Of a stretch of DNA of 64,000 nt, positions 1,178 through 37,347 are shown piece after piece (the stretch's first letter is position 1; every line of letters starts with the position of its first letter). The notes beneath the pieces were generated by a model that made no database searches, had not been told where the DNA came from, and saw nothing but the letters and a program-made list of their open reading frames with translations. The position numbers and the translations under genes are program-made. The stretch lies in the UHGV virus genome UHGV-0018639. One strand, 5' to 3'. Source of the DNA: a virus.

Positions 1178-3036
1178 TCTCTGATCTCCGAAAAGTCTAC
1201 ATTCTGTATAATAAAGTCACGTCTTGGACTTACTTCACTTCCCATTAGGGAATAAAGTAAATCCATTGCTTCTTCATCATACTCTATCACGTCCATACGC
1301 TGATATTCAGGATCAAACATAGATTTACGTGCCTGATTGGGTTCAAGAGAACCGAGGCCCTTATTACGCTGAACTTCGCCCTTCACCTTGGTTTTATTTG
1401 CTTCATATTCTGCATCAGTAAAGAAATAAGACTCAGTTTTTCCATTATTAACAATCCACAAAGGAGAGCGCAGCCAACACAGTCTGCCCTCACGAATAAA
1501 CTGAGGAGCAATATGCGCTAAAGCCGCCATAATAAGCAGGCCAATATGATAGCCGTCACTATCAGCATCGGTACAGATAGCAAGCTTGCCATACCGAAGT
1601 TTTTTTGCATCATACTTTTCGGGTACAATATTCATAGCACTTAATAGCAATTTAATTTCTTCATTCTCATAAACCTTCTCATCAGGATTAGATAAAGCAT
1701 TGATAATTTTACCTCGAATGGCCATAATACCATACTTAGTATAATCACGGCCCTGCGCCAAGCCTCCTAGTGCAGAATCACCCTCAGCAATCAACAGAGT
1801 GGAGTCTTCTCCCAAAAATTCCGCGTCTTTTAATTTATCGCTCGAAAAAACTTTTCGTTTTTGATTTTTTTCAACTTCTTTAGAAGCATTTAAAACTTGC
1901 TGACGAGTGCGCTCAGCCGCTTGATCGGCCTTAGCCTCTTTTGTTAAAAGCTCCATAACCTTATCAAACTCGTCACGGTGCTTTCGCTCAAACTCCTCAA
2001 GCATTTGGCCGGTCGCACGTTGACACAAGCCACGGAGAACAGGATTGTTTACTTTTGTCTTTGTTTGATCACTGAAACTAGGCTGAGGAACTTTGCAGCT
2101 TACTGCATAAAACAAACCTTTTCGAAGAATATCAGGTGGAACTTCACCCTTTATTTTCTTTTTGAAAAAGTTTGTAAGTGCTGTCTTTACGCCTGTAAGA
2201 CTAGTACCACCTGCGGTATTTTCAAGTCCATTAGTAAAAACGTGCCATTCTTCATTGCGTCCATTTGTCCAACACATCACAATTTCAGCTTCTACGTTAT
2301 CTTCTTTCATTATAACGTGGAGAGGGGTTTTGTTTAGCGATTTACCCGCGCAAGTTTTCATAAAGTCAAGCAATCCATTCTTTGCGTGGTACTGAACTGT
2401 TTCCTCTTCCCCTTTTATATGATTATTCAAAATAAAAGTAAGAAATGGATAAAGATAAGACCAGTTGCGACACATTTCTTTTATATCAGAAAATTTGATG
2501 TTTATTGGCTCAAGATTATACACTTCTTGAGAGGGAATGAAATCAACAAACATCCCATGTGCTTTAGGATTATTAGGTTCACCGACTGTAAGTGAAACTT
2601 TATTTCCTTTTTCAAGTATCAATTCACATTCTTTTCCATCTCTCATTGATACCGCGCGAAACTTATCACTCGACAAAGCAGTGCCCTTTGCGCCAATGCC
2701 ATTGAGGCCACCAACATTTTGATAAATTTTATCATTGAATTTGCCACCACTATGAGGTAGTGTATAAATTGCTTCAAGAGCATCAATACTATCATCTCTC
2801 AAACCAAATGGACAGCCTCTTCCATTATCAAGCACGGTAATTCGATTTCCTTCATATAAATCAACAACAATGCGATCACAGTATCCCATAGTTGCTTCAT
2901 CTATTGAATTTGTGACGATTTCGCGCACGCACTGTAAAACACCTTGATTATCTGCACTGCCCATATACATGGCTACGCGAGTTCTTACCGCATCTCGAAA
3001 GTTTAATGTTTCAATTGAATTGGCATCATAACTCAT
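1174..3036 (-). CDS. type IIA DNA topoisomerase ATPase/Toprim subunit (GyrB/ParE, T4 gp39-like)
   Basis: 620 aa. It has a GHKL ATPase N-terminus (VREIVTNSIDE, LDNGRG, GLNGIGAKG) and the Toprim motif EGDSALGG. Confidence 0.85.
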   Translation of the reverse strand: MSYDANSIETLNFRDAVRTRVAMYMGSADNQGVLQCVREIVTNSIDEATMGYCDRIVVDLYEGNRITVLDNGRGCPFGLRDDSIDALEAIYTLPHSGGKFNDKIYQNVGGLNGIGAKGTALSSDKFRAVSMRDGKECELILEKGNKVSLTVGEPNNPKAHGMFVDFIPSQEVYNLEPINIKFSDIKEMCRNWSYLYPFLTFILNNHIKGEEETVQYHAKNGLLDFMKTCAGKSLNKTPLHVIMKEDNVEAEIVMCWTNGRNEEWHVFTNGLENTAGGTSLTGVKTALTNFFKKKIKGEVPPDILRKGLFYAVSCKVPQPSFSDQTKTKVNNPVLRGLCQRATGQMLEEFERKHRDEFDKVMELLTKEAKADQAAERTRQQVLNASKEVEKNQKRKVFSSDKLKDAEFLGEDSTLLIAEGDSALGGLAQGRDYTKYGIMAIRGKIINALSNPDEKVYENEEIKLLLSAMNIVPEKYDAKKLRYGKLAICTDADSDGYHIGLLIMAALAHIAPQFIREGRLCWLRSPLWIVNNGKTESYFFTDAEYEANKTKVKGEVQRNKGLGSLEPNQARKSMFDPEYQRMDVIEYDEEAMDLLYSLMGSEVSPRRDFIIQNVDFSEIRE

Positions 3037-3093
3037 TTTTTCATCTCCAATCTTATTTTTCTTTTTTAATTATAACAAAAATTGAGGAAGAAA

Positions 3094-4466: not shown

Positions 4467-5566
4467 CTCCTAAATTTTTGTTCTTGTTCTTTTTTGACGC
4501 GACGGCGTTTTACCCATAAAAGAAAGTCCTGAGCACGTGTAATAGCGACATAAGCAAGGCGTCCTTCCTCAACCATATCAAGCGGCACTCTGTGGGTATA
4601 ATAATTCGGCTCAGGAATTGTTGCGCCAATTACTACAACCTTCTTTTGTTGAAGTCCCTTTGATGAATGTATTGTGAGGACTTTGACAGTATTCTGCTTC
4701 ATTTTTTCTTGAAGTTGACCAAGATTTACTTCTTTTTGCTTGAAAGTATCGCAAAAAATGCCGCGACTTTCAAGATAAGATTTGACAGTTTCAAGCTGCG
4801 CATTAGTGCGAGTCAATACAAACCATTCACCAAATTTGCCATCTTGAAGTATATAATTTGCAACTGTTTCCAAATTGTAAAGAATTGTAATCTTTTTTCC
4901 CATTTCATCGCGCATTAGAGTAGAATTGTCATAATAACCACAATTCATCCGCTCAATGGCCCATTTTGCGAATTCGTGAATAACACGCGAATTACGGAAA
5001 TTTTCAGATAGTTTATAAGTTGCTACTCCATCAGTCTGGCTCAAATTTACAATAAGGTCAGGATTACTACCCGCAAATGCATAGATTGTTTGCTTTTCAT
5101 CTCCTAATATTGTAAATCGTTTTGGGTTTACCATTTCCAGAATAAACTCAAACTGATGATTATTACTATCTTGTGCTTCATCAAGCAGCAAATGATCGAC
5201 AGGAAAGTTATTTACACAACGTGGGTTCTGTTTTACTAAATTAAATAGTTCATCAAAGTCTTCGCTTTCAATTGTTTCTCTAGTTGCAATTTGTTCAGTG
5301 TGAAGTAAAAAGTTTGCAAATGAATGAACAGTGCCACAAAATCCAATCTGTAAAGGCTCAAGACGATTTATAATTTCTTGCGCCGCATTATTTGTAAATG
5401 TAATAGCCACAATATGTGAGGGCAATGTTCCTTGAGATACAAGCCACTTTATGCGTTCAATAAGGCAAAAAGTCTTTGAAGTGCCTGCACTAGACATTAC
5501 GACAACCTTGTCTTCTGGCGCAGTTATTATTCTATGTTGCTGTTCTGTTATTTTTATTTCGTCCAT
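4457..5566 (-). CDS. UvrD/PcrA-like SF1 DNA helicase (short form)
   Basis: Walker A-like AGTSKT and the UvrD motif Ia AITFTNNAA. 369 aa. Confidence 0.75.
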   Translation of the reverse strand: MDEIKITEQQHRIITAPEDKVVVMSSAGTSKTFCLIERIKWLVSQGTLPSHIVAITFTNNAAQEIINRLEPLQIGFCGTVHSFANFLLHTEQIATRETIESEDFDELFNLVKQNPRCVNNFPVDHLLLDEAQDSNNHQFEFILEMVNPKRFTILGDEKQTIYAFAGSNPDLIVNLSQTDGVATYKLSENFRNSRVIHEFAKWAIERMNCGYYDNSTLMRDEMGKKITILYNLETVANYILQDGKFGEWFVLTRTNAQLETVKSYLESRGIFCDTFKQKEVNLGQLQEKMKQNTVKVLTIHSSKGLQQKKVVVIGATIPEPNYYTHRVPLDMVEEGRLAYVAITRAQDFLLWVKRRRVKKEQEQKFRSWE

Positions 5567-6336
5567 TATCCTACTCTCTCATTTAATCCAAATTTTTTTG
5601 TGTCATAAAATTCAGTCCAATATTTTTCGCGTTCAGTCAGCTTATCTTTTGAAACTTTTTCCAATAATTCAAAAGTAAAATTTTCAATCCCATCTTCCTC
5701 CATTATAGTATGAAGGCGCGAATGACTGATGGTGCCACAATGATAGGCAGACTTAGCGTGTTGAATCCAACGGTCGCGCACATTTGTGGATTTGCCTATA
5801 TAAATTTCGCCTGTTTTTTCGCGTGTGATTTTATAGATGCCACTTGGTTGTTCTCCGTTTAAGACACGGCGTGTCATTTCAAGGACAGGTTTAGCACAAT
5901 AAGTATCATATATCATTTTATCTATATCAATGCGGCGATTAAGTTTAGGGGCTATTTCGCGCAAGACTTGTATGTCATTTAATGCCTCAGGAGACAAATT
6001 GACTTTGAAGAAGGTCTGTTCTTCAATCTTTTTCTTTTCACGGCGTATATCTTCATTTAAAACTTCGCGGCGTTCGCGCAAAGCATCAAGAGCTTTTTGG
6101 ACAATATCACATTGATATTGCGCATCTTGTGTTTCTTGGTTTATTTGTTCTATTCGAGCGTTATATTGAAGTTCAACTTCATCAAGCTCTTGTCGATATT
6201 TCTCCCTTGCTTCTAAAACATTGCGCGCCGCTTCGTCTATAATTTCTTTTTCTTTTTGTAAAACTAAATTTTTTTTATAATAGTGAATGTATATAAAATT
6301 AGCAATTATCAGTGCAACTATTATGAATATGGCCAT
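5566..6336 (-). CDS. GIY-YIG nuclease domain protein with N-terminal TM helix and coiled coil
   Basis: C-terminal GIYKI...GEIYIGKSTNVRDRWIQH (GIY-YIG), a hydrophobic N-terminus and a long coiled coil. The likely true start is MAIFIIV, with AGGAGG 7 nt upstream. Confidence 0.7.
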   Translation of the reverse strand: MAIFIIVALIIANFIYIHYYKKNLVLQKEKEIIDEAARNVLEAREKYRQELDEVELQYNARIEQINQETQDAQYQCDIVQKALDALRERREVLNEDIRREKKKIEEQTFFKVNLSPEALNDIQVLREIAPKLNRRIDIDKMIYDTYCAKPVLEMTRRVLNGEQPSGIYKITREKTGEIYIGKSTNVRDRWIQHAKSAYHCGTISHSRLHTIMEEDGIENFTFELLEKVSKDKLTEREKYWTEFYDTKKFGLNERVG

Positions 6337-13821: not shown

Positions 13822-13907
13822 GCGGGACTGGTGTAATTGGTAGCCACATTTGATTTAAGCTCAAATGGCCTTTGGTCGTAAGGGTTCGAGTCCCTTGTCC
13901 CGCACCA
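13822..13907 (+). tRNA. tRNA-Leu (anticodon TAA), type II
   Basis: Cloverleaf GCGGGAC..GTGTAATTGGTAGCCAC..anticodon loop TTTAAGC..long variable arm..AAGGGTTCGAGTCCCTT..GTCCCGCACCA. Sits directly behind a class-II promoter. Confidence 0.85.
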
Positions 13908-13974
13908 ATTGCCGTTTTCAGTGGCGGCTTAGAAACAGTTCTCAAAGAAGTATCAAAAAGAAAGGAGAAAATGA

Positions 13975-14877
13975 ATGTCATTTTTCGTAAGAACAGTAAC
14001 TGATCGGTATGGGGATACAAATACTTATCCTCGTTGGGGCAGAATAGTGGGGTGCGCTATAGGGGCACTACTTGTTCTAATTATAATTCTCTCTTGTTTT
14101 ACTAAAGTTCCTACTGGCAATACTGGTATTGTCACTACATTTGGTAAGGTTGAGAATTATACATTGGATTCAGGCTTTCATCTAAAAGCTCCGTGGCAGA
14201 AGATAGTTAAGATGGATAATCGAGTACAGAAGCAGAGTATTGATTTGATGTGTTTCTCTTCTGATATTCAGGAAGTCTCTATGACTTATACAATTAACTT
14301 CCAGATTAGTAAGAGCGATGCAATGACGATTTATTCTACCATCGGCACTCATTATTATGAAACCGTTATTATGCCTTGTATTACCGAGTCAGTTAAGACA
14401 GTTTGTGCACGATATACCGCAGAAGAGCTAGTGGGCATGAGAAGTGAACTTGCTTCAGCAATAGAGGAAGATCTTTCTGAGAAATTAATTAATTACAACA
14501 TAGAGCTTGTTTCTACTTCTGTTGAGAACATGGATTTCACTGATGTCTTTACTGATGCTGTTGAAGCAAAGCAGGTTGCAGCACAGAATAAGCTCACCGC
14601 ACAGACTCGTGCTGAGCAGGAAGTTATTGAAGCCGAAGCAGCGGCTAAGGTTCAGGTAATTCAGGCACAGGCTGATGCAGATGCAATGGTGGCTAAGGCT
14701 CAGGCCGAAGCAGAAGCGACTCGAATTCGTGCAGAAGCCGAAGCAGAAGCCAACGCGAAGGTTGCCGCGTCTCTAACAAATGCGCTAATTGATTATACTT
14801 ATGCACAGCATTGGGATGGTAAGTATCCTACCTATTATGGTGGTAATGGTACGACTCCTGTTATCGATCTTAGATAA
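13975..14877 (+). CDS. SPFH/band-7 (prohibitin/HflK-like) membrane protein
   Basis: N-terminal TM helix, an SPFH core (PTGNTGIVTTFGKV...) and a C-terminal Ala/Glu-rich coiled coil (AEAEAAAKVQVIQAQADADAMVAKAQAEAEA). 300 aa. Confidence 0.75.
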   Translation: MSFFVRTVTDRYGDTNTYPRWGRIVGCAIGALLVLIIILSCFTKVPTGNTGIVTTFGKVENYTLDSGFHLKAPWQKIVKMDNRVQKQSIDLMCFSSDIQEVSMTYTINFQISKSDAMTIYSTIGTHYYETVIMPCITESVKTVCARYTAEELVGMRSELASAIEEDLSEKLINYNIELVSTSVENMDFTDVFTDAVEAKQVAAQNKLTAQTRAEQEVIEAEAAAKVQVIQAQADADAMVAKAQAEAEATRIRAEAEAEANAKVAASLTNALIDYTYAQHWDGKYPTYYGGNGTTPVIDLR

Positions 14878-14915
14878 ATAAATGAGCTGGCATCTCAATA
14901 AACTGCCATTAATAT

Positions 14916-15000
14916 GGGTCAGTAGCGAATCGGCAAACGCAACGGGCTGTAAACCCGTCTCCTTCGGGAATAATTGGATCGACACCAATCTGACTCACCA
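14916..15000 (+). tRNA. tRNA-Tyr (anticodon GTA), type II
   Basis: GGGTCAG acceptor pairs CTGACTC-A-CCA. Anticodon stem ACGGG/CCCGT with loop CTGTAAA. T-loop ATCGACA (A54). Confidence 0.75.
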
Positions 15001-15116
15001 AGACGCAGCGGGTGTTAGATTTTCTACTGGGGAATACTGTGTCTAATATAGAGAAAATCATTTTTGTGAAATTCAAGTATATTCTAGCTAAATATACCGT
15101 AAAAGCCGGATTATAT

Positions 15117-15192
15117 GCCCAGATAGCTCAGTTGGTAGAGCAGGGGACTGAAAATTCCCGTGTCGCTGGTCCAATTCCAGCTCTGGGCACCA
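15117..15192 (+). tRNA. tRNA-Phe (anticodon GAA)
   Basis: GCCCAGA..GCTCAGTTGGTAGAGC..loop CTGAAAA..GCTGGTCCAATTCCAGC..TCTGGGCACCA. Canonical cloverleaf. Confidence 0.9.
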
Positions 15193-15364
15193 TTTTGGGA
15201 TTGTTTACTGCTTCTTGTTCCCTTGATCGTGAAAATGCATGAGTAGCGATTAAAAAACATCTAAGCGGCGTGCATCGTTGGCCATCTGAGGGCTGCGTTA
15301 AGGCTTAAAAGGCCACAATCGATTGGGGTTGGTAAACCTCCTGCGGGGAAGCTTCCATTATTAT

Positions 15365-15447
15365 GGGCAAGTGGTGGAACTGGTAGACACAACAGTCTTA
15401 GACGCTGTCGCTTCGGTATAGGGGTTCGAGTCCCCTCCTGCCCACCA
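15365..15447 (+). tRNA. tRNA-Leu (anticodon TAG), type II
   Basis: D arm GTGGAACTGGTAGACAC, anticodon loop CTTAGAC, T arm AGGGGTTCGAGTCCCCT, CCA end. One A-C mismatch in the acceptor stem. Confidence 0.75.
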
Positions 15448-15567
15448 TAAGTCTCCAAGAGGATGGATTTCGGCTAAACTACCACCGGCGCACAATGTGT
15501 GATATGTGGCTTTGTCATTTGTGGAGACTATAATAAATAAAAACGAAAGTAAGCCGACTTTTGAAAT

Positions 15568-15651
15568 GCAGGATTGGTGGAATTGGCAGACACGGTGGAT
15601 TCAAGTCCCACTGCTTTTAGCATAAGAGTTCAAGTCTCTTATCCTGCACCA
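15568..15651 (+). tRNA. tRNA-Leu (anticodon CAA), type II
   Basis: GCAGGAT acceptor, D arm GTGGAATTGGCAGACAC, loop TTCAAGT, variable hairpin TGCTTTTAGCA, T arm AAGAGTTCAAGTCTCTT, ATCCTGCACCA. Confidence 0.8.
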
Positions 15652-15780
15652 TTGGTGGTCACTAGGGTTGTATTCTTCTCAAGCCAAGTGAGTAGTGTTG
15701 ATGAAACGAAATAGATGGTAAACAAATAATTGAGATTAAGTATGCAACCCGTTGTATTATTTTAATGAAAGGAGATAAAA

Positions 15781-16365
15781 ATGTCAGCAAATTTTTATAT
15801 TAGCGATATCCATTTTGGGCATAAAAATATAATAAAATTTGATCATCGTCCTTTTAGTAGTGTTGATGAAATGAACAGCATACTTATTGCAAATTGGAAT
15901 GATATAGTTGGTCACAATGATAATATCTACGTTCTTGGTGATTTTTGCTGGGGTAAATCTGATGAGTGGATTGATATTCTGTCTCAACTCAAAGGTAATA
16001 AGTATCTCATTGCTGGTAATCACGACTTGCGTAATCCTCCTTCAGATGTGCGGCGTTTCTTTCAGGATTGGCGCGACTACAAAGAAATTTTTGACAATGG
16101 CCGCAAGGTTATAATGTGCCATTATCCAATTCCGTTCTATAAGTCAGACTATAATTCAGATACTTATATGTTGTTTGGTCATTTGCACACAACATTTGAG
16201 AATGGGTATATTGAGGATTTGCGCGAACGGATAGAGCACGATCCATATGAGCGTTCAGCAAAAAATCTTTGCCAGTTTTATAACGTTGGTTGTATGATGC
16301 CTTGGATGGAATACAAGCCGCACACGTTGGATGAGATTGTTGAGGGGTTTGGTAAATATCACTAA
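15781..16365 (+). CDS. calcineurin-like metallophosphoesterase
   Basis: DIHFGH, GDF and GNHD motifs. 194 aa. Confidence 0.75.
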   Translation: MSANFYISDIHFGHKNIIKFDHRPFSSVDEMNSILIANWNDIVGHNDNIYVLGDFCWGKSDEWIDILSQLKGNKYLIAGNHDLRNPPSDVRRFFQDWRDYKEIFDNGRKVIMCHYPIPFYKSDYNSDTYMLFGHLHTTFENGYIEDLRERIEHDPYERSAKNLCQFYNVGCMMPWMEYKPHTLDEIVEGFGKYH

Positions 16366-16375
16366 ACCCACATAT

Positions 16376-16464
16376 GCGGGATGAACTCAGACGGCTCTGA
16401 GACCGGTCTTGAAAACCGTGGGCAGGTGAAAGCTTGTGGGGATCGACACCTCCGTCCCGCGCCA
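16376..16464 (+). tRNA. tRNA-Ser (anticodon TGA), type II
   Basis: Anticodon arm CCGGT-CTTGAAA-ACCGT is near-identical to E. coli serT. Long variable arm, T-loop ATCGACA, GTCCCGC-G-CCA. Confidence 0.7.
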
Positions 16465-16468
16465 GTAT

Positions 16469-16556
16469 GCGGAGTCAACCAGTAAGGTGCTGGACTCGCC
16501 TGCTAAGCGATGTGTAGCTATTCGGCTATTTGGTTCGTGTCCAAGGCTCCGCGCCA
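16469..16556 (+). tRNA. tRNA-Ser (anticodon GCT), type II
   Basis: GCGGAGT acceptor, anticodon loop CTGCTAA, variable hairpin TAGCTATTCGGCTA, T arm TTTGGTTCGTGTCCAAG, GCTCCGC-G-CCA. Confidence 0.65.
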
Positions 16557-16560
16557 ATAT

Positions 16561-16636
16561 GTGTCCTTAGTCCAATCGGTAGAACAACAGACTGTTAATC
16601 TGTAGGGTATAGGTTCAAATCCTATAGGACACGCCA
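16561..16636 (+). tRNA. tRNA-Asn (anticodon GTT)
   Basis: GTGTCCT..anticodon stem ACAGA/TCTGT, loop CTGTTAA..T arm ATAGGTTCAAATCCTAT..AGGACAC-G-CCA. Confidence 0.85.
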
Positions 16637-16639
16637 TAT

Positions 16640-16716
16640 GCGCCATTAGCTCAGTTGGTAGTAGCACTTGATTTTTAATCAAGGAGTCCGCGGTTCAAGT
16701 CCGCGATGGCGCACCA
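16640..16716 (+). tRNA. tRNA-Lys (anticodon TTT)
   Basis: GCGCCAT..GCTCAGTTGGTAG..CTTGA-TTTTTAA-TCAAG..CGCGGTTCAAGTCCGCG..ATGGCGC-A-CCA. Confidence 0.9.
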
Positions 16717-16736
16717 TAATTTTTGGAGGAAGTAAA

Positions 16737-17858
16737 ATGAAATTAACAGAAAAGGGGGTTGCCGCGTTTGCCGCAGCGTTAGAGCACTGCCCCAATGAAT
16801 CTTTTTCAGCGGCCAGCCTTTCAGCAAAGTGCGGCGCCTCTATTTCTGCAGCTACACTCAATGGTATTGTCAATCAGGGACTTATGACTCGACTTGGTGG
16901 TTCGCCTGTCAAGTTTGAATTAGTGCCTAACGCGAAAGACTTGTATAGCAAGGCGCGCGAAGATAAGCCAGCCAACGAAAATCTTCGTAAAGCACAGGCC
17001 GCGAAAAATGATGAGTTTTATACTCGGTATCAGGATATCGAAAAAGAAGTCTTACAGTATGACTTGCGTGGCAAAAAGATTCTGTGCAATTGCAATGATG
17101 GGTTAGATAGTGAATTTACAAATTTCTTTATGGCAAATTTTGAAGCACTTGGACTCGCCGAAGTCGTTTGTCTGAGTTATGAGAAAGAAAAGCTTGCTTT
17201 CAAAACGGTTAGGCGCACACCCACAAAGCCCGATATAAAAGTTGAAGTAGCACGGATTCCCCTTAAAGGAAACGGGGCTTTTGATTCATGCGAAGGTCGA
17301 GAAGCTTTAGCGGCCTGTGATGTTGTTATCACTAATCCGCCGTTCAGTCGGTTTCGTGAATTTGTCAATTTGATTTTGTCTTACAAGAAAGACTTTTTGA
17401 TAATTGGCAGTAAAAACGCTATTACTTATAAAGAGTTCTTTCCTCTTCTAATGAATGGCAAAGTTCATATTGGCAATTATAATGTTTCTACTTTTAAACA
17501 GCCCGATGATACTGAGAAGAGATTTGGAAACATTGGTTGGTTTACGACCCTTCCTGTCGCAAAGGCCACACAGCCAATTCCTTTAACAGCAACCTACGAT
17601 TCCGTCAATTATCCTGCCTATGATAATTTTCATGCAATCGAGGTAAGCCGCACAGCTAACATTCCAAAAGATTATGATGGTGTGATGGGCGTTCCTATTT
17701 CATTCCTTGATAAGTTTTGTCCTACTCAATTTAAAATTGTTGGATGGAGCAGACATAATGATGAAGGAATGGACGGCGGATATTGGACGGGCGGTTGTGC
17801 AGATGCTACTATAAATGGTAAACGAGTTTATCGTAGAATTTTGATTCAGAAAATTTGA
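16737..17858 (+). CDS. N6-adenine DNA methyltransferase (NPPF motif)
   Basis: Motif IV VVITNPPFS with a SAM-binding region upstream. About 373 aa from the ATG 7 nt after GGAGG; the track's 16668 start would overlap tRNA-Lys. Its stop codon lies inside the -35 box of the next promoter. Confidence 0.7.
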   Translation: MKLTEKGVAAFAAALEHCPNESFSAASLSAKCGASISAATLNGIVNQGLMTRLGGSPVKFELVPNAKDLYSKAREDKPANENLRKAQAAKNDEFYTRYQDIEKEVLQYDLRGKKILCNCNDGLDSEFTNFFMANFEALGLAEVVCLSYEKEKLAFKTVRRTPTKPDIKVEVARIPLKGNGAFDSCEGREALAACDVVITNPPFSRFREFVNLILSYKKDFLIIGSKNAITYKEFFPLLMNGKVHIGNYNVSTFKQPDDTEKRFGNIGWFTTLPVAKATQPIPLTATYDSVNYPAYDNFHAIEVSRTANIPKDYDGVMGVPISFLDKFCPTQFKIVGWSRHNDEGMDGGYWTGGCADATINGKRVYRRILIQKI

Positions 17859-17894
17859 TTTTTATCAAAATTTTCGATATAATATATATAGAAA
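17855..17894 (+). promoter_or_regulatory. class-II promoter (its -35 contains the methyltransferase gene's TGA stop)
   Basis: TTGATT 17855-60, TATAAT 17878-83, ATATATAGAAAG. Confidence 0.7.
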
Positions 17895-18026
17895 GTTGAG
17901 AGAAATGGTTCTAACAAGCCAGCGTGCGCGCGAGTAAAAGTTGTTAGTAAGCGGTTGGCATACGTGATAAGCCATTGCCCCAGCGAGAAGATTTAATAAA
18001 TCTTCTTTGTTGGCGGTGTTCAATTT

Positions 18027-18100
18027 CGGGGATGTGGTGTAATGGTAGCACACTTGATTTGGGGTCAAGAAGAGTGGTTCAAATCCAACATTTCCGGCCA
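18027..18100 (+). tRNA. tRNA-Pro (anticodon TGG)-like, irregular stems
   Basis: Perfect anticodon arm CTTGA-TTTGGGG-TCAAG, D loop TAATGGTAG, T loop GGTTCAAATCC, 3' GCCA. The acceptor and D stems cannot both be made canonical. Confidence 0.5.
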
Positions 18101-18107
18101 TAAAAAT

Positions 18108-18194
18108 GCTGAGTTCCCATAGTGGTCGATTGGAGCGGTTTTGTAAGCCGCAGACTTCGTGTCCGCATCAGTTCGAATCTGATACTCAGCTCCA
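18108..18194 (+). tRNA. tRNA with anticodon TGT (Thr-like) and an unusual long variable arm
   Basis: Perfect acceptor GCTGAGT/ACTCAGC-T-CCA, anticodon arm GCGGT-TTTGTAA-GCCGC, T arm ATCAGTTCGAATCTGAT, and a 15-nt variable arm. 87 nt. Confidence 0.6.
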
Positions 18195-18198
18195 CTAT

Positions 18199-18274
18199 AA
18201 GAGAGTAGCCCAATAGGTAAGGCAGCAGTCTCCAAAACTGAAGATTAAAGGTTCAATTCCTTTCTCTCTTGCCA
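18199..18274 (+). tRNA. tRNA-Trp (anticodon CCA)
   Basis: AAGAGAG..CAGT-CTCCAAA-ACTG..AAAGGTTCAATTCCTTT..CTCTCTT-G-CCA. Confidence 0.8.
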
Positions 18275-18316
18275 ACAATTTCATTTTTTCATTTTTCAAA
18301 TTTCCTTTCTTAAAAT

Positions 18317-18356
18317 TTGACTTTTTCAAAAAATCTTGATATAATATATACATAAG
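18317..18356 (+). promoter_or_regulatory. class-II promoter driving ORF-free region A
   Basis: TTGACT 18317-22, N17, TATAAT 18340-45, ATATACATAAGATAAAG. Confidence 0.65.
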
Positions 18357-19089
18357 ATAAAGAAAAGAAAAAGTCAAAAGGAGGACGATGCTAGTGCCAC
18401 CTACACGTGGTATCCTCTGTTTTCGCTAAGAGCGCTGGCATATATTCAATTAAATAATACTAACTCAGTGAAGACGGAATTCGATGTTCCGGCTGAGAAA
18501 TTCTAGCTAGCACAGCAGAAACGAAACAAGGATACTTGTGGATACTGGACTGGGAGGCCATCGAGAGATGAGCCGAAGTAGAGCGGTTGCTCAAGTGGGA
18601 AGAAGAGCAGGAATTGTGCTGAGTGAATCGCAAGTAAACGCAGCCGTGGAGTGGCGGGCGCAATAGATAGCTTGGTGAATAGCCAAGCCGAATCCAAGTT
18701 AGGTTTTAGTTGGTGACTGTGACAATCCTTGGAAAAGCCAATAAGCTCGTTCCGTTGAGACGACAGGGAATGTGAAATCTGTCTTTGACACTCTACAGTA
18801 TCCGAGTAGCGGAACACAACGGGGACTTTAGATTAAAAAGATGTTGACAGTAATAGAAATTACTACTTTCTGAACATCCCGTGAAAGGTAGAGGTAATCA
18901 ATCCTCTGGCGGATTAGGCGACATTAGACACTTGGGGTTATCCAAGACTAACAAGTCAATGTTGTTGCTGGGGTAAGAAGTGTATGGGCGACGGCCTGTA
19001 TGCTCAGACTTATCTCCCGCGTGGCAGAATATGCTTGAAGGTTTATCGAGGTAGGGCGAAGGCCCAGTAATATTTAGTTGGATTTATAT
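18346..19089 (+). ncRNA. ORF-free transcribed region A (candidate structured RNA) between a class-II promoter and tRNA-Met
   Basis: About 745 nt with no ORF of 60 aa or more on the sense strand. GC is higher than in flanking DNA. It opens with AAAGGAGG plus a 13-codon ORF (MLVPPTRGILCFR) and ends in a tRNA followed by a terminator. Confidence 0.35.
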
Positions 19090-19162
19090 GGCAGGAAGAG
19101 AAGGTTCTCCGTTTGGCCTCATAAGCCAGACTTCGTAGGTTCGATTCCTACTCCTGCAACCA
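19090..19162 (+). tRNA. tRNA-Met (anticodon CAT), non-canonical, initiator-like
   Basis: Anticodon arm TTGGC-CTCATAA-GCCAG, T arm GTAGGTTCGATTCCTAC, TCCTGCA-A-CCA. G1-A72 mismatch, shortened D arm, terminator hairpin directly after. Confidence 0.6.
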
Positions 19163-19163
19163 A

Positions 19164-19192
19164 GGAAGATGCTTCTTCCTCCGTTTTAAAAA
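19164..19192 (+). terminator. intrinsic terminator after tRNA-Met
   Basis: GGAAGATGCTTCTTCC followed by TCCGTTTT. Confidence 0.55.
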
Positions 19193-19330
19193 ATGTCTTG
19201 AACGACAGGAGGTTTTGCTTATGGACATAACAAAATCTAATGAGGACTTTAGTCCAACGAACAAGGCAAAGAGTTGGGCTTCTCTATAAAAAAGCCCTCG
19301 TTTAAAAAAAATGAAAGGAAGTAAGAAAAA

Positions 19331-19759
19331 ATGAAGTATTATAGTGATGTTCTTCATAGTTTATTTGATACTCAGGATGCGCTCGAAAAAGCCGAAGCTG
19401 AGAAGAAAGAAAAAGATGACGAAAAAGTTCGTCAGAAGGAAAATGCTGATAAGCTCAAGGCCGAGGATAAGAAGCGTTTTCTTGAGCTAAGAGAGAGGTA
19501 TTTTAAAGCAAGTGTTGAGTATGAAGCATATTTTGATAAATTGCTGAATAACTACTCATTTAACACCATAATGGGCTGGGTGTCTGAAGCGGCTACTAAA
19601 AAGACCCAGACCCAGACCCAGATTAAGACGATAGATCAGACGGCTGAAAGTATTTTTGATGCTTGCAAGTCAGCTAAAACTGTCAAAACCGCAAAAACGG
19701 CGCGTGAGCCTGAAAATTTGGGAGAAATTCTTATTCGTATTTTTGAGGATATGCAGTAA
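19331..19759 (+). CDS. hypothetical protein (142 aa), Lys/Glu-rich coiled coil
   Basis: ORF track entry with RBS GAAAGGAAG upstream. Confidence 0.5.
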   Translation: MKYYSDVLHSLFDTQDALEKAEAEKKEKDDEKVRQKENADKLKAEDKKRFLELRERYFKASVEYEAYFDKLLNNYSFNTIMGWVSEAATKKTQTQTQIKTIDQTAESIFDACKSAKTVKTAKTAREPENLGEILIRIFEDMQ

Positions 19760-19762
19760 GAA

Positions 19763-20320
19763 TTTTAAATAAATCAGGTTACTTGATCATCGGGTTTCCT
19801 GCGGAGTTAAAGCTAAAACGTTAGCGGTGAATATGGCCATTCCCGCAAGCTCGGCGACTTGTTAGGCAATCGCGCTGATGTAAATTATTGATAAGGGAGC
19901 TTTGGTATAATTTATTCACTGGGGCTTTCCAAAAGTCGGACTCAAGCCTAAACTGAGTTCGCAGTGCTGAGGTCGGTATTCGCTCGGAGAGGATGCGTTA
20001 TTGAGCTAATTAGATTAGCATCAATGTGAGGCAACGGTGGCCAACTCTTAGAGAGCCACGCGATAGAGTTATGTTAAAAGGCAATACTCAGTATCGGTGC
20101 TACTAGGGTTGATAGACAAGTAGTAAAAGTCAGGTGAAGATAATACCGGCTGACATAATTGGGACGTAGCTATAGGCGTAGGCCGTGCCAGAACTAAAGT
20201 GTGCGGCACACGAAACCCAAGTCAGATGCGGGCGATTGAAACGGCGCCCTCAACCCATATAAGGTTTTACAAGAGATTTTCCTTGCGTTAGGCTAAAAAA
20301 TCTCTTTTCTATATAAATTT
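19763..20320 (+). ncRNA. ORF-free region B (candidate structured RNA) preceding tRNA-Gln
   Basis: About 560 nt with no ORF, higher GC and many local hairpins. Ends with tRNA-Gln and an intrinsic terminator. Confidence 0.3.
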
Positions 20321-20395
20321 AGAGGTATAGTGTAATTGGCAACACATCGGCCTTTGACGCCGTATTTATAGGTTCAAGTCCTGTTACCTCTGCCA
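20321..20395 (+). tRNA. tRNA-Gln (anticodon TTG)
   Basis: AGAGGTA..GTGTAATTGGCAACAC..CGGC-CTTTGAC-GCCG..ATAGGTTCAAGTCCTGT..TACCTCT-G-CCA. Confidence 0.8.
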
Positions 20396-20400
20396 ACAGC

Positions 20401-20434
20401 TCCACATTAGAAAAGCCTAATGTGGACTTTTTTA
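20401..20434 (+). terminator. intrinsic terminator after tRNA-Gln
   Basis: TCCACATTAGAAAAGCCTAATGTGGA followed by CTTTTTTAT. Confidence 0.7.
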
Positions 20435-20502: not shown

Positions 20503-21126
20503 ATGGAAGAATTAGGTCTGTTATTGGGTTTGGGAGATGATGCTAACTATCAGCTTGCTAATCCAAGCCTGTTAGCGTATTATAAAGAACTCAATGAGCG
20601 TCGTCTCTGGCTCGATTGCGAGGTAGATGATGAAGCGATAGGTGATATGTGCCGCCAGATTATTCATTGGAATAAGGAGGATGACACAATAGAGCCTTCG
20701 AAGAGGAAAAAGATTATTATCTATTTTGTCAGCCCCGGTGGTAGTTTAGACAGCTATCTATGGCTCAAAGACGTAATAAATCTGAGTATTACTCCAATAG
20801 TTGGCATTATGATGAGCCGCACAGCTAGCGCGGCTGCTCTTATTTACCTTCATTGTCACGAGCGTTATGCTCTTGAAAGCGCAAAGATTTTGTTCCACTA
20901 CGGTTCAATTTCTCTTGCACAGGACGCCGCGAATGCGATTGAATCGATGAAGAAGTATGAGCAAGAAGTTGGGAAGTTTGTTGATGTAATTCGTGAGCAC
21001 TCTGACTTTTCAGGCGAATATATTCGTGATAAGTTGGTAAAGGATTGGGAGCTTACGGCTGATGAAGCTCTTGAGCACGGCATTGTTCAAAAGATTGTAA
21101 GTGATATCAGCGAACTTTGGAACTAA
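20503..21126 (+). CDS. ClpP-family serine protease
   Basis: FVSPGGSLDS and GIMMSRTASAAALIY resemble ClpP INSPGG and GxAASMG. 207 aa. Confidence 0.7.
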   Translation: MEELGLLLGLGDDANYQLANPSLLAYYKELNERRLWLDCEVDDEAIGDMCRQIIHWNKEDDTIEPSKRKKIIIYFVSPGGSLDSYLWLKDVINLSITPIVGIMMSRTASAAALIYLHCHERYALESAKILFHYGSISLAQDAANAIESMKKYEQEVGKFVDVIREHSDFSGEYIRDKLVKDWELTADEALEHGIVQKIVSDISELWN

Positions 21127-21138
21127 AGGAGGACTCCT

Positions 21139-21453
21139 ATGGATAAATATACTGGCTATTACGAATGGCGCCCATCAGAGCAAGGGCTTGAGGACTTTTA
21201 TTCTGGCTTTTTTACTCCTGCGGGGATGGGTCTGGTAGAAAACCAGTATTTGATTATCTATGACGCTGATGGCAAAGTTATAGATAAATATTTTTGTAAG
21301 AACAACGAGTTTGAGAAAGTTCATTATATGACACTCCAAAGCGATTACTGCGGCGTTATCAAACCGCGCAATGTGTATCAGGAACTAGCAATTCACGCAC
21401 TGTTAGATAGGCGTGTTCCTGTAAAGGCGCTGGGTGGTGTTTTTGGTTCGGGT
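21139..21453 (+). CDS. phoH: PhoH-like ATPase, exon 1 (N-terminal part up to the Walker A glycines)
   Basis: Ends ...RVPVKALGGVFGSG, the PhoH P-loop start. The in-frame TAA at 21457 lies inside the intron. Confidence 0.65.
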
Positions 21454-21680
21454 AAATAACTTGCCCCTTCTTAGGGCGACCTAAGAATGAAAATCGCGTG
21501 AATTGCTGGAAACCTAAGCCGCGAGGTATGGTAATCAGCAGCCAAGCCGTTTAACAACGGAAGGTTCAACGACTATCCCGACAGGGAGTAGGGAGCAATC
21601 CCGAAGTGCGCGACAACTTTCAAAGTTGATGATATAGTCTAATCCCCTTTTGAAATATCGGGAAACCGAGGGTATAAATG
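21454..21680 (+). ncRNA. group I self-splicing intron (no homing-endonuclease ORF, about 227 nt; boundaries approximate)
   Basis: Core elements P GAATTGCTGGAAACC (21500), Q AATCAGCAGCC (21533), R GTTCAACGACTAT (21564) and S GATGATATAGTCT (21628). P4 shows compensatory pairing TGCTG/CAGCA and P7 pairs GACTAT/ATAGTC. A P1 is possible between the exon end CGGGT and GCCC, and the omega-G is G21680. Confidence 0.7.
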
Positions 21681-22211
21681 AAGGACTTCCTAATGAGCGG
21701 TGCCTGTTTCAGTCTTATCGAAAAAGGCATCTTTGAAAAACTCGTATATATACGCCCTAACATTACACTTGAAGGTGTGCCTGACATCGGCTATCTCAAG
21801 GGTGGAATGGATGAAAAACTTGAATGGACTTTAGCTCCATTATGGGATAAGTTCGGTGGCCGCGAAGCTACTCAAAATCTTGTTGCTTCTGGCAAGATTG
21901 AACTTGTGGCTTTGCCTTTTATTAAAGGTCGTAGCTTTGAGAACAGTATTATCTATGTAAGTGAAGGTCAAAATATAACCCGCAAAGTAGCTGGTAATAT
22001 TATAAGCCGCGCTGGTGAAAACACTGAGATTTGGATAAATGGCGACTATCACAGTCAAACTGACCGTAGAATGTTTGAGATTGATAATGGTATGCGCGCA
22101 ATGGAAGAGACTCTGAAGGGTAATTCATTATATGAAACCCTTTATCTCCCAATCACGGAACGTTCGGCTGTTGCACAGCTTGCTGGAATTGTTTGCAATA
22201 CTGAAAATTGA
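21681..22211 (+). CDS. phoH: PhoH-like ATPase, exon 2
   Basis: KDFLMSGA...RPNITLEGVPDIGYLKGGMDEKLEWTLAPLWD...VALPFIKGRSFENSIIYVSEGQNIT...INGDYHSQTD aligns with the PhoH Walker B and C-terminal blocks. Confidence 0.65.
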   Translation, partial: KDFLMSGACFSLIEKGIFEKLVYIRPNITLEGVPDIGYLKGGMDEKLEWTLAPLWDKFGGREATQNLVASGKIELVALPFIKGRSFENSIIYVSEGQNITRKVAGNIISRAGENTEIWINGDYHSQTDRRMFEIDNGMRAMEETLKGNSLYETLYLPITERSAVAQLAGIVCNTEN

Positions 22212-22317
22212 ACACTCTTTTTTAGAATGAAATTTCACTAAATCTACTTACTATTGCCACAGGCCAGTTAGTTCCGTAGTGGCAGCGGCGTTGAAAGGCT
22301 AACTGTTTATATATCGT

Positions 22318-22345
22318 GAGGGGCAATTGCCCCTCTTTTTTTATA
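22318..22345 (+). terminator. intrinsic terminator after phoH
   Basis: GAGGGGCAATTGCCCCTC followed by TTTTTTTAT. Confidence 0.75.
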
Positions 22346-32164: not shown

Positions 32165-32212
32165 ATAAGAAATATAAACCAATTGAGGTTTTACAAAAGG
32201 AGATCAATTCAA

Positions 32213-33194
32213 ATGATAGGTGTAGATCTAAATCAATATCGTAATCTACCCGATTACACACAACTTAAAAAGGATGGCTATGAGTTTGCTATTATAAAAT
32301 TGGCAACTGGTGTATCCTTTACTAATCCTTTATTTCAAACCCAGTTTAGTGGTTGTAAGTCAGCCGGCCTCAACATTGGCGTTTATACTCGTGCCGACAA
32401 GCAACCTACAAGCGGTGCACAGGAAGCTGCCTATGCACTTAATATACTGGGTAATCGTCACGTAGATTTCCCCATTTACTATGACGTAGAGGGAGAAACA
32501 CTAAATCTTTCAAAAGACAAACTGACTCAGCTGATTCTTGATTTTGGTGAAGCAATAAAACGTGCAGGATATCGTTGGGGTATTTATACATCCCGCGCAC
32601 ATTTCAAGTGCTTTGACCTTGACAAGCTAAAAGAGGCTGGCGCATCTATATGGTGTGCCGCCTATGACACACAAGCTGGAATGGAGTGCGACATTTGGCA
32701 AAAGTCAGATAAAGGCTCTATTACAGGATATTCTGGACCAGTTGATGTGGATGTTTTATATAATGAAAGCATAATACAGAAGGAGGAAAATAAAATGAGT
32801 TTGAATTTGATAAAATGTTTTCAAACACAGGGCGCGTGGTATAATCAAACCACAAATGGTACTCCTGTTGGGGTATGTTGGCATGATACTGGCGCTGGTA
32901 ATCCAACATTGAAGCGTTATGTTCAGCCATCTACTAATGACCCTGATTATAATTATTTTATAAATCTTATCGGTAAGAACAATAATGGCAATCACTGGAA
33001 TCGTATGGCTGCAAATCAGGCAGGGTTAAATGCTTGGATTGGTCAGCTTGCAGACGGTAGCGTTGCTACTATTCAAGCTGGCCCTTGGGAGAAACGTCCT
33101 TGGGGCGTTGGCTCTGGTAAATATGGTTCACTCAATGGTGATAAGAATGTACCTAATGATAAGTTTTGGATCCAGTTTGAGATTACATCATCGT
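32213..33194 (+). CDS. endolysin exon 1: GH25 muramidase plus the first half of an amidase-like domain
   Basis: GH25 blocks GVDLNQY..DGYEFAIIKLATG..GLNIGVYTRA..FPIYYDVEG..WGIYTS..IWCAAY. The second domain begins VGVCWHDTGAG. There is an internal in-frame AGGAGG-N8-ATG at about 32789. The ORF-track stop at 33206 lies in the intron. Confidence 0.65.
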
Positions 33195-33525
33195 TAGTCT
33201 CCGCGTAAAGCGATTTGCGTGTAAAAATACATATCGAATTGCTGGGAAACTGTAAAGCTATTCTTGCTACAACGTAAGGATGAAATAAGCCTAAGCGTGA
33301 AAGCCGCGAAAGCAGAAAGAAAAGAATAGATGGCGTATGGTCAAATCCTAAGCGCCGTATAATTGGCAATCAGCAGCTAAGCCTTGAATAGAGGAAAGTT
33401 CAACGACTAAGTGCCTTGCAAGCGATTGGCAAGGACAGTGGTATGTGGCTCATTGAGCTAAAGATATAGTCTGTGCTTCGAGAGAAATCCGAAGGAGCGA
33501 AAGCTCAGTGCGGGGTAGCGACCCG
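33195..33525 (+). ncRNA. group I self-splicing intron (no ORF, about 331 nt; boundaries approximate)
   Basis: Core elements P GAATTGCTGGGAAAC (33236), Q AATCAGCAGC (33368), R GTTCAACGACTAA (33398) and S AAGATATAGTCT (33461), nearly identical to the phoH intron. P1 pairs exon ATCGT with GCGAT (33210), and omega-G is G33525. Confidence 0.65.
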
Positions 33526-34604
33526 TTCTAAACACAAACAGATGCGATGATTACGCACACAACCAGCCTTGCCGCAAGGCTTACTTCGAGCAAGCTTATC
33601 AACAAGCTGTCGAATTTACCGCCTACATTTGCCAACTCTACAATATAGATCCGTTTGGCACTGTCAACTATCGCGGCCACGATGTCCCGACAATTTGTTG
33701 CCACTATGACAGCTATAAGCTCGGCTTCGGCTCTAACCACGGCGACGTCTATCTTTGGTTTAATCGTTTCGGCAAGACAATGGATGACGTTAGACGTGAT
33801 GTCGGCGCACTGATGGGTAAGGTTGTTGTTCCTGACACTCCTGGCCCCGTCATTCCGACTCAACCGTCTAAGCCTTCTAACCCCTATCCGACTCTCAGAG
33901 TTGGCACGCACAGCTCAGCCGTCAAAACTGCACAGCAGCGCCTTATCGCGCACGGTTATAGTGTAGGTTCTGCTGGCGCTGATGGTTGGTTTGGTGAGGG
34001 CACTCTTAATGCCGTCAAGAAATTCCAGTCCGCCAAAGGTTTGACCGTTGATGGTATAATTGGTTCTGCTACTTGGACAGCACTCAATAAGGAGCCAGAG
34101 AAAAAGGAAGAACCCGTCAAGCCTGTGCAACCAAGTGAGCCAGCTAAGCCTGTCCAACCATCCACTAACCGCCCGACAATCGGCGTTGGTGATAGTGGAG
34201 CTTACGTAAAAGAAGCTCAAACAATGTTGAAAAAGCTCGGCTATGACATTGGTAAATATGGTGCCGATGGTGTATTTGGCAACTCTACTAAAGCAGCAGT
34301 TCTCAATTTCCAAAAGAAAAACAATCTTGCCGCTGACGGTATTGTTGGCCCAAATACTTGGGTCGAACTTGACAAGCAAGTTGCCGCACTGTCAAAAAAG
34401 TCTGACAGCTCTAATGGTGTCCCATTCCTTGTCCGAGTAAACTCCAACGCTCTCAATATTCGCAAAGGCCCCGGCACTAACTATGCGATAGCTCGTGTGA
34501 TTACTGACCGCGGCACTTATACAATTATTGAGGTGTCTGGTGAATGGGGTAAACTCAAGAGCGGCGCTGGCTGGATAAATCTGAATTATACTACTAGAGT
34601 TTGA
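33526..34604 (+). CDS. endolysin exon 2: amidase-like C-half, two PG_binding_1 domains, C-terminal SH3b
   Basis: The frame is open from 33519 and joins the 33780 ORF. It contains ...AYQQAVEFTAYICQLYNIDPFGTVNYRGHDVP..., two AVKTAQQRLIAHGY...DGWFG...TW motifs and NIRKGPGTNYAIARVITDRGTYTIIEVSGEWGKLKSGAGWINLNY. The spliced product is about 686 aa. Confidence 0.6.
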
Positions 34605-37272: not shown

Positions 37273-37347
37273 AGCTGGATAGCTCAGTTGGTAGAGAGCT
37301 AACATTTGGAAGGTTAGAGGGCGATGGTTCGAATCCATCTCTGGCTC
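37273..37347 (+). tRNA. tRNA, anticodon uncertain (TGG/Pro-like), possibly with a 9-nt anticodon loop; no encoded CCA
   Basis: AGCTGGA..GCTCAGTTGGTAGAGAGC..CTAAC-ATTTGGAAG-GTTAG..GATGGTTCGAATCCATC..TCTGGCT-C. Good acceptor, D and T arms. The anticodon stem is either 5 bp with a 9-nt loop, or a 7-nt loop TTTGGAA closed by an A-G pair. Confidence 0.55.

Follow-up and report, generated by a model that had tools for sequence, protein, structure and literature searches.

The locus considered here raises the question of why a phoH-like gene should appear as two separate open reading frames (ORFs) in a 64,000-nt stretch of virus genome UHGV-0018639 (the whole stretch that was analysed, hereafter the window). 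The first ORF (21139-21459, + strand) encodes 106 amino acids (aa) and ends ...ALGGVFGSGK followed by a stop codon, and the second (21678-22211, + strand) encodes 177 aa which include the blocks GVPDIGYLKGG, IYVSEGQN and INGDYHSQTD; some 220 nt free of ORFs separate the two. A preliminary description had read the end of the first ORF as a Walker A motif cut short and the second ORF as the remainder of PhoH, with a compact group I intron between the two. The elements that it described were all found at, or one base from, the positions that it gave; the cut-short motif and the three named blocks were confirmed, and exon 2 aligns downstream of Walker A. We consider it highly probable that an ORF-less group I intron splits the gene for a PhoH-like ATPase at G-S-G/K-D (the slash marks the junction) in this uncultured phage of about 130 kilobases (kb), and we infer that the intron is self-splicing. 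The interrupted gene comprises the following features:

21139 to 21453, + strand: phoH exon 1 (105 codons), closing with ...G-V-F-G-S-G, where the P-loop is half complete; the exon aligns to residues 1-105 of uninterrupted homologues
21454 to 21680, + strand: group I intron, 227 nt, ORF-less, probably IA-type, from Rfam RF00028
21457 to 21459, + strand: in-frame UAA stop codon in the P1 loop, read from the sequence
21680, + strand: terminal guanosine (omega-G), with the 3' splice site directly after it, conserved in all same-site copies
21681 to 22211, + strand: phoH exon 2, K-D-F-L-M... onward, 176 codons and stop, from homologue alignment and PF02562

Scanning all 64 kb against Rfam gave a match to RF00028 (Intron_gpI) at 21444-21662 of 88.0 bits (gathering score 50, E = 4.1e-21) over the full-length model (1-253), with the P3-P9 core accepted by the covariance model; chance does not account for such a match. 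No ORF of at least 40 aa lies wholly inside the intron, in which no frame stays clear of stop codons for more than 47 aa, and the window copy is indeed without a homing endonuclease gene, as had been claimed for it. Exon 1 closes on a complete codon at U21453 (...GGU UCG GGU) and, as a stop codon at 21675-77 lies in the frame of exon 2, the acceptor must lie at or after 21678; G21680 is the sole G-preceded acceptor which holds both the frame and the Lys, matching the homologues. Joining U21453 to A21681 removes 227 nt and is in frame (...GVFGSG/KDFLMSG...), as the preliminary description had it, with a predicted junction, at the RNA/DNA level, of ...GGUUCGGGU joined to AAGGACUUC... and a junction peptide VFGSGKDFLMSGACFSLIEK. 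Comparison with the intron-less allele alone left a 2-nt ambiguity of the borders, because AA repeats at both, and this was settled by the rules of U before the 5' and G before the 3' splice site. A 3' splice site after G21683, which would delete the invariant Lys106, and a 5' splice site after U21457, for which no in-frame G-preceded acceptor fitted the homologues, were both tried and rejected. As predicted, the junction rebuilds the invariant G-S-G/K-D motif without gap or insertion.

The predicted spliced PhoH of 281 aa gave a single unbroken match to PF02562 (97.7 bits, cutoff 27; residues 74-261 on profile positions 2-186), where exon 2 alone scored 81.3 bits over profile positions 34-186, and it also matched phrog_2765 ('PhoH-like', 2e-60) and PDB entry 3b85 (E 2e-11). 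Searching about 5.8 billion proteins yielded 292 PhoH homologues, the best of which, P0001, is uninterrupted, 281 aa long, 95% identical to the spliced product and collinear with it residue for residue. Residues G103, G105, K106 and D107 were invariant in 17/17 homologues in an alignment that reached down to 47% identity. Contigs carrying P0001, up to 129 kb in length, have the same gene order as the window (ClpP, PhoH, a 563-aa protein) and are about 91-92% identical to it on either side, with the alignment breaking exactly at the intron.

The window PhoH departs from both the canonical Walker A (GxxxxGK[S/T]) and the canonical Walker B (hhhhDE) motifs. Its GVFGSGKD aligns with GPAGSGKT of 3b85 and its IYVSEGQN with VILDEAQN, such that in this PhoH subfamily Asp replaces the usual Thr/Ser of Walker A (GSGKD; window 21439-21453 and 21681-21686) and Ser/Thr/Cys replaces the usual Asp of Walker B (YVSEGQN; window 21951-21974), with D107, E200, Q202 and N203 invariant in the 17 aligned homologues. 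By these alignments the protein belongs to a divergent PhoH subfamily with a family-wide GxGKD variant of Walker A and predicted ATPase activity, and the GKD and SE changes look like a reciprocal swap of the two Mg-coordinating positions. The ratio of nonsynonymous to synonymous substitution rates (dN/dS) was 0.011-0.039 over both exons (exon 1 0.02-0.04; exon 2 0.01-0.03), whether the window was compared with intron-less alleles or with other intron-bearing alleles. Both halves of phoH are under strong purifying selection in intron-bearing lineages, which would imply that an intact PhoH is made and, in turn, that the intron splices.

For the ribozyme itself, the P, Q, R and S elements and the P1-P9 pairings were assigned by hand and every pair was checked for being canonical or G-U, as all proved to be. 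The four core strings that had been quoted were each found in place, with R and S in agreement with the Rfam consensus, and the quoted P7 (GACTAT/ATAGTC) forms six canonical pairs. The proposed P1, with a U-G pair at the splice site, stood as GGGUAA/UUGCCC with U21453-G21463, but the extra C of the 'CGGGU' given for it is unpaired. The assigned elements and helices are:

21500 to 21514: P element, GAATTGCTGGAAACC
21533 to 21543: Q element, AATCAGCAGCC
21564 to 21576: R element, GTTCAACGACTAT
21628 to 21640: S element, GATGATATAGTCT
21450-55 with 21461-66, + strand: P1 hairpin GGGUAA/UUGCCC, with the U21453-G21463 wobble at the 5' splice site
21460 to 21466, + strand: internal guide sequence CUUGCCC
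21468-75 with 21480-87, + strand: P2, 8 base pairs (bp), with GNRA loop GCGA; all 8 pairs covary in the family
21494-99 with 21608-13, + strand: P3, which encloses P4 to P7.2
21504-09 with 21535-40, + strand: P4
21512-14 with 21530-32, + strand: P5
21518-20 with 21525-27, + strand: P5a, with GCGA loop
21541-43 with 21563-65, + strand: P6
21547-51 with 21556-60, + strand: P6a
21571-76 with 21634-39, + strand: P7 pseudoknot helix GACUAU/AUAGUC, invariant in four same-site copies
21577-79 with 21584-86, + strand: P7.1, CCC-GACA-GGG, which covaries in the family
21591-94 with 21599-602, + strand: P7.2, GGGA-GCAA-UCCC, with GCAA loop, which covaries in the family
21614-19 with 21623-28, + strand: P8, minimal hairpin CAACUU-UCA-AAGUUG with a 3-nt loop, the position of the LAGLIDADG gene in relatives
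21644-46 with 21670-72, + strand: P9, CCC/GGG, enclosing UCGG-GAAA-CCGA (21658-69)
21460-62 with 21681-83, + strand: P10, CUU with the first three bases of exon 2, AAG

Minimum-free-energy folding independently gave P1, P2, P3, P4-P6a, P7.1, P7.2, P8 and P9, by a method that cannot show the P7 pseudoknot. P7 is established as the guanosine-binding site of group I introns, and by analogy the P7 found here would hold that site. Hairpins P7.1 and P7.2, which also lie between the 5' strand of P7 and P3' in T4, SPO1 and Twort introns, would mark the intron as subgroup IA (IA2-like), an assignment made by these hairpins and not against reference structures.

A scan of IMG/VR with the spliced PhoH gave sister phage contigs of 75-132 kb, and the viral contigs compared are denoted below by L numbers. 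The phoH site was found empty in L001-L007 and occupied by a same-site intron in the window, L008, L009, L010, L100 and L103, with the genome backgrounds of occupied (window, L008, L009, L010 and L100) and empty (L001-L007) sites about 91-92% identical. The empty-site junction in L001 reads GGTGTCTTTGGTTCAGGT followed directly by AAAGATCTTCTAATG. Among the six alleles compared, just two positions up to 150 nt from the junction, 21450 and 21683, show fixed differences between alleles with and without the intron. At 21450, intron-plus alleles have G and intron-minus alleles A, a synonymous difference (Ser TCG vs TCA), and the G pairs with C21466 in P1; at 21683, G is again found in intron-plus and A in intron-minus alleles, also synonymously (Lys AAG vs AAA), and here the G pairs with C21460 in P10. 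The more distant L103 has guide UUU and exon AAA, vs the CUU and AAG of the window, and this compensatory change supports both P10 and the 3' splice site.

Four same-site ribozymes were 95% identical, and their substitutions were not spread evenly: 14/16 substituted columns lie outside helices and 2/16 inside, where 134/238 columns are paired (hypergeometric P = 2.6e-4), and one of the two helix substitutions is an A-U to G-U change. Changes in the loops keep to GNRA (L2 GCGA/GUGA, with GUGA in L008 and L009; L5a GCGA/GCAA; L7.2 GCAA/GUAA). With a covariance model built from these four copies, 100 viral contigs were found to hold 138 related introns, mostly of 200-270 nt and ORF-less (198-274 nt among those examined), with some contigs carrying several. 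The 227-nt size is thus typical, not exceptional, of a compact intron type that is abundant in phage metagenomes. Covariation was seen in each of the 13 helices modelled, over 135 related phage introns: in the family alignment 94.3% of cells pair, vs 32-46% when the partners are slid by 1-3 columns, 59/60 pairs change on both sides, and 0/500 shuffles reached the observed values. Of about 94 family members aligned, 78 have a U-G pair in the 5' splice-site column.

Several points weigh against the intron reading, or lend it less than they might appear to. Splicing, including guanosine-dependent self-splicing, is deduced from DNA and not from RNA. Just two distinct intron-less sequences (the L001 type and L007) stand behind the argument from fixed differences in P1 and P10. 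Within the ribozyme no compensatory change occurred among the four same-site copies, in which covariation is uninformative because the pairs never vary, and one P6a pair is broken in L009. The alignment of distant members from which covariation was scored is fitted to the model and leans towards the structure, with the margin nevertheless large, and the minimum-free-energy z-score of the region was only -1.8, a value that is expected for a pseudoknotted ribozyme and that gives no support.

On the evidence of these pairings, expression of the gene would begin with a clpP-phoH transcript, on which a ribosome translating exon 1 would read one codon beyond the 5' splice site of the unspliced RNA and then stop at the UAA (21457-59) of the P1 loop. 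The RNA would fold into P1-P9, and an external guanosine bound in P7 would attack after U21453, the U of the U-G wobble in P1. The 3'-OH so released on U21453 would then attack after omega-G21680, with the guide positioning the 3' splice site through P10 (CUU 21460-62 with AAG 21681-83), and the ligated mRNA would encode the 281-aa PhoH. The window copy would represent the endonuclease-less stage of a homing cycle.

Were the transcript read as it stands, two polypeptides could be made without splicing, one of 106 aa and one of 177 aa from the AUG at 21678-80, giving a split PhoH or a truncated one without its P-loop, possibly beside splicing. The 3' end of the intron (21668-21680) reads GAGGG-UAUAA-AUG, in which a Shine-Dalgarno-like GAGGG (21668-72) is followed 5 nt on by an AUG that shares the frame of exon 2; L008-L010 have this arrangement too, as does L103 with other spacer bases (GAGGGUAAAAUAUG), and public gene calls enter the 106-aa and 177-aa fragments separately. 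In the folded intron this GAGGG is, however, base-paired as the 3' strand of P9/P9a, so that its conservation is explained by the ribozyme, and the related intron of Staphylococcus phage 812 ends in CUG, not AUG. With a break between G and K, the nucleotide-binding P-loop would be divided over two chains, which is implausible, and the junction restores the invariant motif exactly. We regard production of two polypeptides in place of splicing as very unlikely; the AUG-ended 3' end may be a by-product of P9, or may permit a P-loop-less PhoH to be made from unspliced RNA.

It might instead be supposed that the intron is a decaying remnant which no longer splices and that phoH is a pseudogene, as would fit with the absence of the endonuclease gene, with the reduction of P8 to a 6-bp hairpin with a 3-nt loop, and with splicing itself being a reading of the sequence. 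We hold this to be highly improbable: the core helices, U-G pair, omega-G and P10 are all intact, substitutions among copies avoid the helices, and dN/dS stays at about 0.02-0.04 in both exons, including among intron-bearing alleles, as it would not in a dead gene. Splicing-competent introns without an endonuclease are moreover the norm, as for that of Bacillus anthracis recA (PMC2504315). An assembly or chimerism artefact is effectively refuted and retains next to no probability, since no fewer than five independent contigs (L008, L009, L010, L100 and L103) have the same intron at this site and 106-aa exon-1 fragments are present on dozens of contigs from NCBI, ENA, JGI and Logan.

Returning to the ORF-less group I intron, its same-site relatives differ in what their P8 loop contains. 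The window intron encodes no homing endonuclease, and shows presence/absence polymorphism among the sister phages. The L008 intron (1981-3039; 1059 nt) carries a 246-aa LAGLIDADG ORF (PF14528, 7e-13) in the P8 loop, in which a 1-nt difference from L010 and L103 in a run of A truncates the N-terminus and may be a sequencing error in the homopolymer; that of L010 (2065-3000; 936 nt) carries an ORF lacking 40 aa (120 nt, in-frame) of the second LAGLIDADG domain; and that of L103 (about 4663-5728, - strand), at the same GSG/KD site in a more divergent phage which keeps the ClpP-PhoH synteny, has an apparently intact 279-aa LAGLIDADG ORF in P8. The L009 intron is ORF-less and 232 nt long, and its P8 loop still resembles both ends of the ORF-bearing P8, which suggests deletion of the ORF and not an ancestral ORF-less state. 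As same-site relatives carry the LAGLIDADG gene in P8, the window intron is probably a non-autonomous derivative of a mobile intron which lost its endonuclease gene, and we infer the direction of that change from these copies. Read in this order, the sister phages would run through the whole of the classical homing cycle, from invasion by way of a decaying endonuclease to loss of the ORF.

The 3' part of clpP and the whole of phoH (window 20803-22230, compared with L001 and L007-L010) showed 78-90% identity per 100-nt bin, with the flanks mostly at 92-98%. The window and L008 are 96-100% identical from 21930 on, but 78-82% around the intron site, and identity between L001 and L009 was 0.79-0.87 near the site and at least 0.95 in the flanks. 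This mosaic pattern suggests recombination around the intron site; because the region is mosaic in all comparisons, the dip in identity was not taken as proof of co-conversion tracts. Elsewhere in the intron family, several viral contigs (L086, L046, L049, L054 and L063) carry three to seven family introns each within a few kb, and the host genes among the top matches, judged by eye from translations, were ribonucleotide reductase (RNR)-like, capsid-like and psbA-like.

The best match in a cultured phage to the phoH-intron endonuclease was I-812II, a LAGLIDADG ('DOD') endonuclease of Staphylococcus phage 812 (Kayvirus; EF136585) and other Kayvirus, with 36% identity over 95% of its length, encoded in an intron of a RecA-like recombinase gene. 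As in the phoH-intron relatives, the phage 812 endonuclease gene lies in P8; as in the window, the P9 design is CCC...(stem-GAAA-stem)GGG, and the intron splits Walker A at the equivalent point, GLTGSG/KST, in phase 0 with a GGT/AAG junction. Unlike the window, phage 812 has its intron in a RecA-like gene that is not orthologous to PhoH, the intron is 1369 nt with an ORF vs 227 nt without, and the ribozyme has a P5 extension of about 130 nt. Because the ribozyme gave only a 12-bit partial match to the four-copy model, it is the endonuclease, together with architecture and insertion position, that carries the case for a common origin. A related compact intron in L020 (5896-6149, - strand; 123.5 bits to the four-copy model) lies in the Walker A of a different ATPase (...LIYGQPG/CGKTTF..., phase 1), with a 5' exon that also ends ...CTGGGT. 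Tentatively, and as a possibility that we rate as somewhat doubtful, a lineage of intron and LAGLIDADG endonuclease may home on P-loop-coding DNA (...GGN-NNN-GGT/AAG...) and so move between non-orthologous ATPase genes (RecA-like and PhoH). If true, introns transposing ectopically from one gene family to another would have Walker A as their common landing pad.

Compact IA2 phage introns include those of T4 td, nrdB and nrdD, SPO1 DNA polymerase and Twort orf142, and the T4 introns carry GIY-YIG or HNH endonucleases, not LAGLIDADG. These introns share with the window intron the P/Q/R/S core with the P7.1/P7.2 insertion, location in a functional motif of a conserved phage protein gene, and a stop codon shortly beyond the 5' splice site; they differ from it in host gene and insertion site. 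The intron core gave blastn matches on Staphylococcus, Listeria, Enterococcus, Bacillus and Felixounavirus-type phages, mostly, among the records listed, under a DNA polymerase annotation. When the DNA was searched against cultured phages, that collection yielded no related genome and nothing beyond short stretches matching the intron core, and in the corresponding protein search the best PhoH matches were those of Lactococcus 949-type phages (37-43% identity), in one piece, with no interrupted phoH among the 40 matches listed.

The closest parallel in population terms is the recA intron of B. anthracis and the B. cereus group, a splicing-only element after endonuclease loss, in which the deletion preserves the secondary structure and for which intron-minus, intron with endonuclease and intron without endonuclease states coexist as a homing cycle, the intron-bearing exons carrying bases that pair in P1/P10 (PMC2504315). 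The window lineage resembles it in the endonuclease-less copy, the three-state population and the P1/P10-pairing exon bases; the B. anthracis recA intron, unlike that of the window, is chromosomal, with another host gene and another ribozyme subclass (IA1/IA3 features). A self-splicing mobile element is also present in the phoH of Campylobacter phage vB_CcoM-IBB_35, but at the protein level, as an intein (PMC3322345), and not as an RNA intron. The searchable open-access literature gave no report of phoH carrying a group I intron; papers there that name both group I introns and phoH handle them separately.

In the window, phoH follows a ClpP-like protease gene, as it does in all related contigs, and terminator-like hairpins at 20401-20426 and 22318-22335 flank the clpP-phoH pair, which is probably one transcription unit. 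The features adjoining phoH are:

20503 to 21126, + strand: ClpP-like protease gene (PF00574, 66.4 bits)
21126 to 21132, + strand: Shine-Dalgarno sequence AAGGAGG, 6 nt 5' of the phoH start codon at 21139, read from the sequence
22318 to 22335, + strand: intrinsic-terminator-like hairpin with a T run, 3' of phoH

Twelve tRNA genes were found by Rfam (13822-20392 and 37273-37347, + strand), eleven of them clustered 5' of clpP-phoH, and L001 carries a similar tRNA array. A ROOL RNA (RF03087, 268.9 bits) lies at 18440-19085 (+ strand), at the end of the array and about 2 kb 5' of phoH, a relative placement that L001, L007, L009 and the more distant L011 share. A second group I intron, at 33145-33494 (+ strand; RF00028, 65.8 bits), splits an endolysin gene into a 5' ORF (32183-33208) with a GH25 domain and a 3' ORF (33780-34604) with two PG_binding_1 domains and a sub-threshold SH3_3 match (24.4 bits vs a cutoff of 27); by manual translation, about 33530-33780 after the endolysin intron is in the same frame as the downstream ORF. 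This is a different intron from that in phoH, as it gave only 23.6 bits to the phoH-intron model.

On NCBI, ENA, JGI and Logan contigs, gene callers make two proteins of the two phoH exons, one of 106 aa and one of 170-177 aa; one public 106-aa fragment is named 'predicted ribonuclease YlaK', and split calls of this kind hide an intact 281-aa PhoH on many metagenomic phage contigs. That group I introns lie in conserved phage genes, at the codons of catalytic motifs, and pass through a cycle of endonuclease gain and loss is textbook knowledge, and the understanding of these introns is unchanged by the phoH case. With it, phoH joins the phage genes invaded by group I introns, and the insertion of the phage 812 intron at GSG/K suggests that P-loop codons are a recurrent target. 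The sister contigs form a natural series of sites that are empty, hold an intron with an apparently intact or an apparently damaged endonuclease gene, or hold an ORF-less intron, along which the guide-paired exon bases co-vary with the presence of the intron.

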